From the IMG/VR virus record IMGVR_UViG_3300045988_179398, positions 60,111 to 124,110 of that record: DNA of 64,000 nt; one strand, given 5' to 3'. This stretch comes from a virus. The translations under genes were made by a program, and so were the position numbers. Numbering within the stretch: the stretch's first letter is position 1; every line of letters begins with the position of its first letter. The notes beneath the pieces were generated by a model that made no database searches, was not told the origin of the DNA, and was given only the letters and a program-made list of their open reading frames with translations. Positions 31,321 to 32,146 of the stretch are shown piece by piece.

Positions 31321-31696
31321 AAACTCGGTGCCTAACGCCTTGAACGGTGGTGGTCCAAAGGTGGTTAAATTGGGAAGCGCCCAGCCGAGTAAACGTTCAC
31401 TGCGGCGACTGCGGTATGTAAAAGTCGTAGGTATAGCGCCACCGTTAAACGCGCCAGTTATTGGGGTCAACTAAAGGCGGCGGATAGTTAATCCGTGTAG
31501 CAACCCTTAGAGTTGGTGGTGTAAAAATCTCTTAAAACCACTTATGGGCGAAGTGAGTAGAATCAAATTGCCTCGCCGCTGACCAATATGCGGGATAAAA
31601 GTGGTTGGGTCGACAAGTATTAAAAACAGAGATAACTCGAACTGTTTTCCTATGGACGGTTTTCCCCAAAGTACACGGGGATAGGGTTATTTATAT

Positions 31697-31767
31697 GCCC
31701 AAGTAGCTTTACGGCAAAGTAATAAGAAGCTTCTTATTAGCTATTGGTTCGACTCCAATCTTGGGAT
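31697..31767 (+). ncRNA. tRNA-like module 1 (aberrant anticodon arm)
   Basis: Canonical T arm ATTGG-TTCGACT-CCAAT. 6-bp acceptor (G1/A72 mismatch). D arm GCTT/AAGT. The anticodon arm is replaced by a perfect 9-bp palindrome AATAAGAAG/CTTCTTATT, so no 7-nt loop is possible. Confidence 0.4.
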
Positions 31768-32050
31768 CGGGTGAAGTTGAGGCAGTCATTCACTCCCTGA
31801 AAAAAAGAAGGCATGGTGTATTTGAGAAGGTCCTAATTATGACCTAAGTTATCCGAAGTCTTTTCTCAATAAAATGAGATTAAAGAATGTAGAGATAAGC
31901 TCATTAGGATGTTAACTAATGAGAGTGTAAACTAACTAGTCAGTTATCTATACTTTATTGACTTTAAAATAATGCCAAGGGGCTAGAGGCCGCACTAGTA
32001 TAAAATTGTCGGATTTTCGCGAATGACGCCTCGGAAAGACGAGGATGCAT

Positions 32051-32122
32051 GCCCTCTGAAGACTGGGTGGACGGTTGCTTGATCACCAATCGTGCGTAGT
32101 TCGAATCTGCGGGAGGGTGCCA
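32051..32122 (+). ncRNA. tRNA-like module 2 (encoded CCA, no D stem)
   Basis: T arm CGTAG-TTCGAAT-CTGCG. Acceptor GCCCTCT/GGAGGGT, then G73 and CCA. Central 6-bp hairpin CGGTTG/CAATCG with a 9-nt loop. No D stem can be drawn. Followed by an A-run. Confidence 0.4.
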
Positions 32123-32146
32123 ATAAAAAAAACGAAGGTGATTAAA

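Follow-up and report, generated by a model that had tools for sequence, protein, structure and literature searches.

In type III toxin-antitoxin systems the antitoxin is a labile RNA, and the toxin is freed once host transcription stops. In one such system, cptIN, the toxin CptN is an endoribonuclease that is neutralised by CptI, a 45-nucleotide (nt) pseudoknot RNA. To our knowledge, the only case in which a type III antitoxin RNA is known to be mimicked comes from the laboratory, with pseudo-ToxI in phage PhiTE. Pseudo-ToxI suppresses abortive infection by molecular mimicry (PMC3475682). For CptI, one repeat suffices for full antitoxicity if processing flanks are supplied (PMC4627078). Here we analysed 64,000 nt of viral DNA, positions 60,111 to 124,110 of IMG/VR record IMGVR_UViG_3300045988_179398 (this whole stretch is called the window, and its numbering is used unless a locus label precedes the coordinates), and focused on the region 31321-32146 (+ strand, 826 nt). 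This region carries a single CptI-like unit at 31569-31613 with no toxin gene beside it, which we propose to be a phage pseudo-antitoxin. No report of a CptI mimic was found in the literature searched.

A CptI-like unit without its toxin gene

About 40 distinct versions of the locus were collected from public assemblies with the upstream Sequestin gene (described below) as anchor; loci and contigs are given by our labels, L with a number. The unit lies in the part of the region that we call module B (31507-31692). A metagenome scan with the most conserved block of this module recovered the phage copies together with loci that carry tandem 45-nt repeats, in the order promoter, repeats, terminator hairpin and a gene of about 160 amino acids (aa). 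The protein encoded 3' of the repeats matched CptN (PDB 4RMO_A) with an E-value of 3e-52, which identifies the tandem repeats as the antitoxin RNA CptI. The CptN protein matched no Pfam or PADLOC model and the CptI unit matched nothing in Rfam, and we therefore regard this system as an annotation blind spot. A scan of GTDB genomes gave 21 matches, most of them with the layout of repeats followed by cptN, mainly in gut and rumen Clostridia plus Gemella (taxa with this layout: Ruminococcus, Lachnospiraceae, Oscillospiraceae, Agathobacter, Christensenellaceae and Gemella). The clostridial distribution of cptIN agrees with the sigma-70 promoters in the window and with the nearest cultured relatives of the source phage (~130-146 kb), which are Clostridioides and other Firmicute phages.

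The CptI repeat in the window, the clear mimic in the region, had been overlooked in the earlier note on this DNA. Its parts are as follows, in the numbering of E. rectale CptI, in which C8 is 31576:

31569-31613, + strand: single CptI-like unit (putative pseudo-antitoxin) within module B
31576-31579 / 31590-31593: stem S1 (CptI positions 8-11/22-25)
31581: G13 of L1
31583-31587 / 31604-31608: stem S2 (CptI positions 15-19/36-40)
31595-31603: A-rich L2
31613: A45 (scissile position)
31614-31631, + strand: linker CAAGUAUUAAAAACAGAG, in which C 31614 has no counterpart in the natural GA^AAG processing site

Positions 8-45 of the unit match repeat 2 of the genuine cptIN loci L088/L115 at 38/38 positions. 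With a covariance model built from 31 bacterial repeats only (model R1), the window unit scored 57.5 bits (E 3.7e-14), and exactly one strong match was obtained in each searched locus carrying module B; at E<=1 this model gave no support for a possible vestigial half-repeat 5' of the unit. Both pseudoknot stems can form, and L1 (G13) and the A-rich L2 are retained. Relative to the crystallised E. rectale CptI, the sequence of which is recoverable from a primer in PMC4627078, stems S1 and S2 carry compensatory pairs (A10-U23 to G-C and G17-C38 to A-U). Mutation of A29 abolishes the antitoxicity of CptI (PMC4627078); this base is present in the window unit and invariant across the phages, and position 30 is A, as in some natural repeats. 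By its sequence and predicted fold, we assign 31569-31613 as a CptI homologue with very high confidence.

Core identity of the unit among 25 phage variants was 96%, compared with 55-61% for the flanks, making it the best-conserved segment of an otherwise hypervariable locus. The variation among phages is concentrated at L2 positions 27, 30 and 33, of which positions 30 and 33 vary in natural repeats too. CptI loci have a tandem array of at least two repeats, processed at GA^AAG sites at both ends, and cptIN loci have a downstream terminator; the phage loci have one match each, no such terminator follows the window unit, and neither end of that unit keeps a GA^AAG site. Where natural repeats have (A/U)AAG, (G/U/A)ACAAG stands in all phage copies. 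A tblastn search with CptN detected no cptN in the window, nor in the related phage loci L001-L082. Lacking a tandem array, a toxin gene and natural processing sites, 31569-31613 is thus not part of a cptIN locus; like PhiTE pseudo-ToxI, it is a phage-borne antitoxin-like repeat without a toxin gene.

Three unrelated IMG/VR contigs likewise carry one orphan CptI unit each and no cptN (L127:2229-2276, L128:3820-3867 and L129:199-246). The unit of L128 (107 kb) lies inside a transfer RNA (tRNA) island and that of L129 (75 kb) just before an aberrant tRNA with an encoded CCA. L127 and L129 also have the additional C 3' of A45.

Two further kinds of CptI locus were observed in these searches. Complete cptIN loci, with two repeats and cptN, were present on IMG/VR viral contigs (L123-L126 and L130), from which we conclude that some phages or prophages carry the whole system. 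In two Ruminococcus metagenome-assembled genomes (L111:1374-1640 and L120:6788-7050), a very acidic 48-aa open reading frame (ORF; MFGIFDDIFDFNGDG...) takes the place of cptN behind two CptI repeats, and these loci may represent a variant with a different partner. The acidic ORF at 32147-32284 of the window showed no similarity to it.

Setting of the unit and the RNA modules around it

Both strands of the region 31321-32146 contain ORFs of at most 52 aa, and close relatives differ by 1- and 2-nt insertions or deletions in the equivalent region. On these grounds the region is non-coding, which bears out the initial impression that it holds no credible coding sequence. Two features precede it:

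30923-30951, + strand: sigma-70 type promoter, a perfect TTGACA-17-TATAAT with TG extension, outside 31321-32146
31123-31320: Sequestin gene, 65 aa, directly 5' of the RNA region (Pfam PF21825, crAss001_48 / Sequestin)

Proteins of PF21825 are phage sponges for immune signalling nucleotides, according to papers of 2025-2026. Expression of a small ORF, of Sequestin and of the entire RNA region is probably driven by this promoter. No terminator-like site was found on the + strand between this promoter and 33100; the RNA region is therefore probably co-transcribed with the Sequestin gene. On its 3' side follow a 45-aa ORF, tRNA-Ser(GCU), tRNA-Trp and a TnpB element, with a kinase/phosphatase gene (Pnkp-like, 34261-35181) and an RNA ligase gene (35156-36415) nearby. 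The interval 30.9-36.4 kb, with Sequestin, kinase/phosphatase and RNA ligase, looks like an anti-defence island, and we take 31321-32146 to be the non-coding part of an anti-defence operon in a phage of gut Clostridia.

The locus is strongly mosaic. The phage helicase is 98-99% identical in six IMG/VR contigs, and the DNA downstream of it is only 70-90% identical and rearranged. Across the ~40 loci, module A, module B, tRNA-like element 1, a spacer, and the leader with tRNA-like element 2 shuffle independently of each other, while IscB/HEARO, TnpB and homing endonuclease genes are dispersed through the island. As these comparisons indicate, 31321-32146 is a chain of separable predicted RNA modules and not a single RNA. 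The earlier note had implied a unity of the 826 nt, with long-range complementarity, a view that has to be given up given these separable modules and a thermodynamic z-score of only -1.96 for the whole. The candidate pairing of GGUCA (module A) with UGACC (module B) showed no covariation and is broken in L059. The modules other than the CptI-like unit and the tRNA-like elements are:

31321-31506, + strand: module A, structured RNA, starting right after (1 nt past) the Sequestin stop codon
31324-31328 / 31385-31389: helix H1 of module A
31342-31346 / 31394-31398: possible pseudoknot helix of module A
31461-31506: invariant 3' block of module A, containing the hairpin 31480-31485 / 31491-31496
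31507-31568, + strand: 5' part of module B, with a variable hairpin/pseudoknot at 31509-31545
31546-31549 / 31570-31574, + strand: hairpin GGGC / GCC(U)C, abutting the CptI-like unit
31632-31690, + strand: three-way junction of module B, with P1 (31632-31638 / 31684-31690), junction GAAC and variable hairpin P2
31664-31667 / 31677-31680: P3 of the three-way junction, with conserved loop AAAGUACAC
31768-31922, + strand: AT-rich spacer, poorly conserved and with no conserved ORF

Compensatory changes among three sequence types were seen in helix H1 of module A (CUCGG/CCGAG vs CAGG/CCUG) and in the hairpin of its 3' block (A-U / C-G / U-A); misalignment among these types limited the column-based covariation scan, so that only some of the helices are supported. 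Module A had no Rfam match and no kin outside its own phage family in IMG/VR or GTDB genomes, and its invariant 46-nt block was absent from GTDB genomes. In L078 it stands by itself, directly 5' of tRNA-Thr, and in L001 a TnpB element is inserted within it (about 10040-11250). Relatives carry up to 1.1 kb of extra structured modules between A and B, just upstream of the part corresponding to 31507-31568, including another tRNA-like minihelix of 50 nt.

Module B shows compensatory changes in its 5' part (GGUGGU/ACCACU vs GAUGGU/ACCAUC), and the hairpin that draws in the CptI 5' tail covaries (GGGC/GCCxC vs GGAC/GUCxC). For P1 and P3 of the three-way junction, 6/11 pairs are compensatory and 98% of cells are paired, values reached in 0/500 shuffles. 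The P3 loop core AAGUACA is invariant across all variants and contains the palindrome GUAC; that this could permit dimerisation, CptIN being a 2:2 complex, is an idea only. In L005 a diverged copy of the junction occurs by itself with its own promoter. The spacer and leader are jointly 78% identical to L079, and the 28-aa ORF of the spacer is frame-shifted in L097.

Rfam was searched at gathering and at permissive thresholds (E<=10, 2.1-kb search) in the window and its relatives, and the only matches were tRNAs, HEARO and a sub-threshold match of DUF3800-IX (RF02968) to the three-way junction, at 24.3 bits against a cut-off of 36.8. The L005, L004 and L033-type variants of the junction gave no match to DUF3800-IX. 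At the DNA level, neither the region nor a longer version of it (L034) matched GenBank phages or PLSDB plasmids, and IMG/VR scans with module A or B blocks returned only four previously collected contigs and chance matches in coding sequences. Several other RNA classes were considered and rejected. Transfer-messenger RNA is not supported, as ARAGORN found none and the acceptor strands are contiguous in each tRNA-like module; a group I intron had no Rfam match at E<=10, and the region sits between a stop codon and a tRNA. For RNase P RNA, Y RNA/YrlA, retron msr and CRISPR repeats, inspection by eye found defining motifs or any Rfam signal absent.

Some neighbouring features deserve separate mention. 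The 45-aa conserved ORF (32147-32284) has the acidic C-terminal end DDYYDDDDDD and no Pfam match. At 32300-32462 lies tRNA-Ser(GCU) with a conserved leader of ~90 nt; in L006:11350-11498 this leader is preceded by a TTGACA-17-TATACT promoter, the spacer of which is shortened in the window copy. FolD (methylene-tetrahydrofolate dehydrogenase/cyclohydrolase) is encoded at 30068-30916, just upstream of the anti-defence operon, and only some relatives have it. A HEARO (omega) RNA (119.6 bits) with a directly downstream IscB gene (RRXRR + HNH) occupies 26986-28498, and such a pair also lies within the tRNA island of relative L002 (11935-12135). The TnpB/IS605-type element spans 32889-34250; it has a left-end hairpin at 32889-32944, and a perfect promoter-like site overlaps its start.

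tRNA-like elements as candidate processing handles

Two tRNA-like elements, the first directly 3' of module B and the second behind the spacer and a conserved leader, complete the region:

31697-31767, + strand: tRNA-like element 1, with acceptor, short D-like arm, AU-rich palindromic hairpin and T arm
31923-32050, + strand: conserved leader of element 2, ending in the hairpin 32029-32044 (CCUCG-GAAAGA-CGAGG)
32051-32122, + strand: tRNA-like element 2, with acceptor, no D stem, a 7-bp stem, T arm and CCA

The earlier note had described both as modules with aberrant middles, and its description was correct; both are conserved in relatives, beyond chance. Both share with tRNAs the acceptor stem and a T arm whose loop reads UUCGAxU, and neither has the full cloverleaf with a 7-nt anticodon loop of the tRNA family (RF00005), nor did the Rfam tRNA model match either of them at E<=10. 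ARAGORN in default mode calls neither; in relaxed mode it reports the two as aberrant tRNAs whose 'anticodons' have 2 and 4 nt.

Element 1 has the acceptor strands GCCCAAG / CUUGGG(A), in which G1 is mismatched with A72, no encoded CCA, and the T arm AUUGG-UUCGACU-CCAAU. A 20-nt perfect palindrome (taataagaag/cttcttatta, 31720-31739) stands at the position of the anticodon arm. The element recurs at 99% identity in L079, and in the variant of L097 the D arm is normal and the anticodon arm is missing.

Element 2 has a 7-bp acceptor with G1.U72, followed by G73 and an encoded CCA, and the T arm CGUAG-UUCGAAU-CUGCG. An invariant 13-nt single-stranded segment replaces the D arm, and the 7-bp stem carries the 9-nt loop CUUGAUCAC, within which UGAUC is conserved. 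It recurs in five sequence variants at 93-97% identity. The six variants are 99% pair-compatible, with changes at T-stem pair 51:63 (U.G / C-G / U-A) and at pair 1:72 (G.U / A-U), and the statistical support is weak. Its leader is 91-95% identical in five other contexts, and the last 27-37 nt of the leader also precede tRNA-His in L005 and L006. Leader and element together (31923-32122) are found behind tRNA-Leu in L063 and in other contexts at 91-97% identity. A search of IMG/VR with an invariant 20-mer of element 2 returned only chance coding matches. Judged from these sequences, element 2 may be a separate tRNA-like RNA with a function of its own.

L073 apart, every variant type examined has a tRNA or tRNA-like element 3-6 nt 3' of module B. 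Five forms were found at this place: element 1 (window, L079); the element 1 variant without anticodon arm (L097); a 46-nt minihelix without anticodon arm or CCA (L002, L006, L053, L098 and L095, with a related form in L005); a pseudo-tRNA with AUG anticodon (L033 type); and a genuine tRNA-Ser (L003, L004 and L059). The minihelix consists of an acceptor, a UGGU D-loop remnant and a T arm, and acceptor and T-arm pairing is kept at 96% in its family. The conserved parts of these elements are the RNase P recognition parts, and the decoding part is dispensable. The proposal of the earlier note that such modules act as RNase P/Z processing handles thus gains support from position, 3-6 nt 3' of module B in five forms, although the covariation statistics are weak. 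From this arrangement, we lean slightly towards the tRNA-like elements being RNase P handles.

Other unusual tRNA-like genes were noted in relatives. A tRNA at L005:10414-10491 has an 8-nt anticodon loop with the 4-base anticodon GUAA (ARAGORN; Rfam tRNA 27 bits) and could be a quadruplet-decoding or frameshift-suppressor tRNA. Genes with A34, 'His' AUG and 'Ser' ACU, occur in L056 (region coordinates 974-1045) and L074/L076 (963-1053), and the 'His' AUG gene lies 3' of the three-way junction in many relatives.

Proposed function and comparison with known systems

We propose that 31569-31613, a toxin-less copy of CptI, serves as a phage pseudo-antitoxin that is scaffolded by its structured flanks and released by RNase P at tRNA-like elements, an overall explanation to which we give a probability of about 0.6. 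The proposal begins from what the sequences display directly: the unit is homologous to CptI, orphan, strongly conserved and recurrent, and it is placed in an operon with further counter-defence genes. It continues from there by way of type III biology and by analogy with PhiTE, which escapes ToxIN by means of its pseudo-ToxI repeats. The unit itself probably acts as an anti-CptN decoy. It would be transcribed from the operon's own strong promoter together with the Sequestin sponge gene. When the infection shuts off host transcription, labile host CptI would decay, and phage CptI would keep CptN bound and inactive, so that abortive infection would be blocked. The flanking hairpin and the three-way junction would serve as a scaffold and protect the unit from exonucleases. 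With the extra C after A45, the 3' tail may be poorly cleaved by CptN, and the RNA may thus be, speculatively, a non-cleavable scaffolded decoy. Finally, the tRNA-like element or genuine tRNA 3' of module B would recruit RNase P, by which the decoy RNA would be cut from the long transcript.

Several points weigh against this proposal. The 5' tail of the unit reads UGCCUCG, inside a hairpin, instead of AAGUUUA, and the 3' site reads GA-C-AAG instead of GA^AAG; in the crystal structure the single-stranded tails of CptI touch the toxin (PMC4627078), and both tail sites are altered here. In E. coli, cptIN gave no resistance against >200 coliphages, and it has never been shown to abort phage infection (PMC4627078); anti-phage activity of CptIN is undemonstrated because phages of cptIN hosts were lacking in that work. 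CptI/CptN pairs are highly cognate-specific (PMC4627078). In PhiTE, 1.5 pseudo-ToxI repeats were not protective until expanded (PMC3475682), and there is a single unit here. Module A and the three-way junction are left unaccounted for, the junction of L073 is not directly followed by a tRNA-like element, and the covariation statistics of the tRNA-like elements are weak.

A wider reading would account for more of the modules, with the island as a polycistronic array of RNA decoys. Each conserved module would then mimic a different host immune RNA, from module A and the modules inserted in relatives to the three-way junction and, possibly, the tRNA-like RNAs, and the minihelices would serve as universal RNase P release signals. 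Their targets could be other RNA antitoxins, the ncRNA (non-coding RNA) partners of Abi or DUF3800-type effectors, or tRNAs. We hold this extension as tentative and rather doubtful; if true, the island would be the RNA counterpart of protein anti-defence islands, and the orphan CptI unit would be the first evidence of cptIN as an anti-phage system in gut Clostridia.

Alternatively, tRNA mimicry could be the main function, with elements 1 and 2 and the minihelices as decoys or inhibitors of tRNA-cleaving or -modifying defence enzymes, or with element 2 as a chargeable tRNA of unusual decoding or non-ribosomal role. Pressure from tRNA nucleases is suggested by the adjoining genes for RNA ligase and a Pnkp-like enzyme, and element 2, conserved at 93-97%, encodes CCA and has the same 1:72 and G73 acceptor end as the tRNA-Trp of the phage. 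However, anticodon nucleases recognise anticodon loops, which are absent in the minihelices and the L097 form or replaced by a palindrome, most of the elements have no CCA, and the constant place right after a structured module better fits punctuation; we consider this alternative unlikely. The earlier note had itself raised decoys against host nucleases, which anticipated the spirit of a decoy or mimic, but the clear mimic is the CptI repeat 31569-31613 and not a tRNA.

It is also improbable that the region is neutral debris at a recombination hot spot, with the CptI-like unit as a scrap of cptIN and the tRNA-like modules as pseudogenes. Such an origin would suit the extremely mosaic locus with its invading IscB, TnpB and homing endonuclease genes, the G1.A72 mismatch of element 1, the pseudo-tRNAs with A34 and a unit without natural processing sites. 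It would not suit a unit conserved at 96% between flanks at 55-61%, with A29 invariant, retained in every module-B variant and recurring as an orphan in unrelated phages. Moreover, the minihelices keep exactly the RNase P recognition parts, and the pairing of element 2 survives substitutions.

Quite improbable, in our view, is a role confined to the 3' untranslated region or to processing, in which the modules do no more than stabilise the mRNA of Sequestin once RNase P has cut, and host CptN matures the phage RNA by cleaving it at the CptI-like unit. Module A does begin 1 nt past the Sequestin stop codon, and a terminator is absent; yet L063-type loci have the Sequestin gene and no module A, modules are present without the Sequestin gene in L005, invariant 46-nt blocks are needless for simple stabilisers, and the natural context of CptN cleavage is altered and not preserved. 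A single large ornate RNA of the GOLLD/ROOL kind with nested tRNAs, which the earlier note had put forward, is highly improbable, for despite a phage location adjoining tRNAs, several conserved and covarying helices with pseudoknot candidates, and variable insertions as in GOLLD, neither model matched the window at E<=10 or the relatives, modules stand independently (module A in L078, the three-way junction in L005, the leader with element 2 in L063), and one part is accounted for as CptI.

To return to the pseudo-antitoxin proposal, the structure of CptIN is solved and its anti-phage role undemonstrated, and these phages would supply the missing partner and make the question testable. The putative mimic is a conserved, naturally fixed feature of a widespread human-gut phage family and is found again in three unrelated phage contigs. 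The locus would also point to a design principle, a decoy RNA scaffolded by stable helices and released by tRNA-like handles, and the further conserved RNA modules may be decoys for other RNA-dependent defences.

Handles at RNA 3' ends have precedents in MALAT1/mascRNA, in mitochondrial tRNA punctuation and in the stable RNAs C and D of T4, which are co-transcribed with tRNAs. As in MALAT1/mascRNA-type handles, a tRNA or tRNA-like fold directly 3' would let RNase P set the RNA 3' end, here within a phage tRNA cluster; the handles predicted in our loci differ in including ~46-nt minihelices without anticodon arm, punctuating putative anti-defence RNAs. GOLLD and ROOL (Rfam RF01998 and RF03087) are likewise large, structured, phage-associated and adjoining tRNAs, but 31321-32146 matches them in neither sequence nor structure and is not a single conserved unit. 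The three-way junction resembles DUF3800-IX in outline (P1, GAAC, two hairpins, UAG, P1'; Weinberg et al. 2017, PMC5737381) and differs from it in its score below the cut-off, in the variants without a match and in having no DUF3800 gene nearby; DUF3800-associated RNAs are unexplained ncRNA partners of a protein family.

The phage unit agrees with CptI of E. rectale cptIN (PDB 4RMO; Rao et al. 2015, PMC4627078) in its 45-nt length, S1, L1, S2 and A-rich L2, and differs in having no tandem repeats, terminator or cptN, a replaced 5' tail and the extra C after A45. Of the described systems, pseudo-ToxI from PhiTE (Blower et al. 2012, PMC3475682) comes closest; it is likewise a phage-encoded type III antitoxin repeat without a toxin, intergenic in a Pectobacterium phage of ~142 kb, and one for which suppression of abortive infection is established where we propose it. 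ToxI is 36 nt long, whereas CptI has 45 nt. The phage unit described here further differs from pseudo-ToxI by its altered processing sites, its structured flanks, the tRNA-like element 3' of it and its location in a tRNA island, and, in place of 1.5 tandem repeats that need expansion, it is a single unit that is fixed and conserved across many phage variants.

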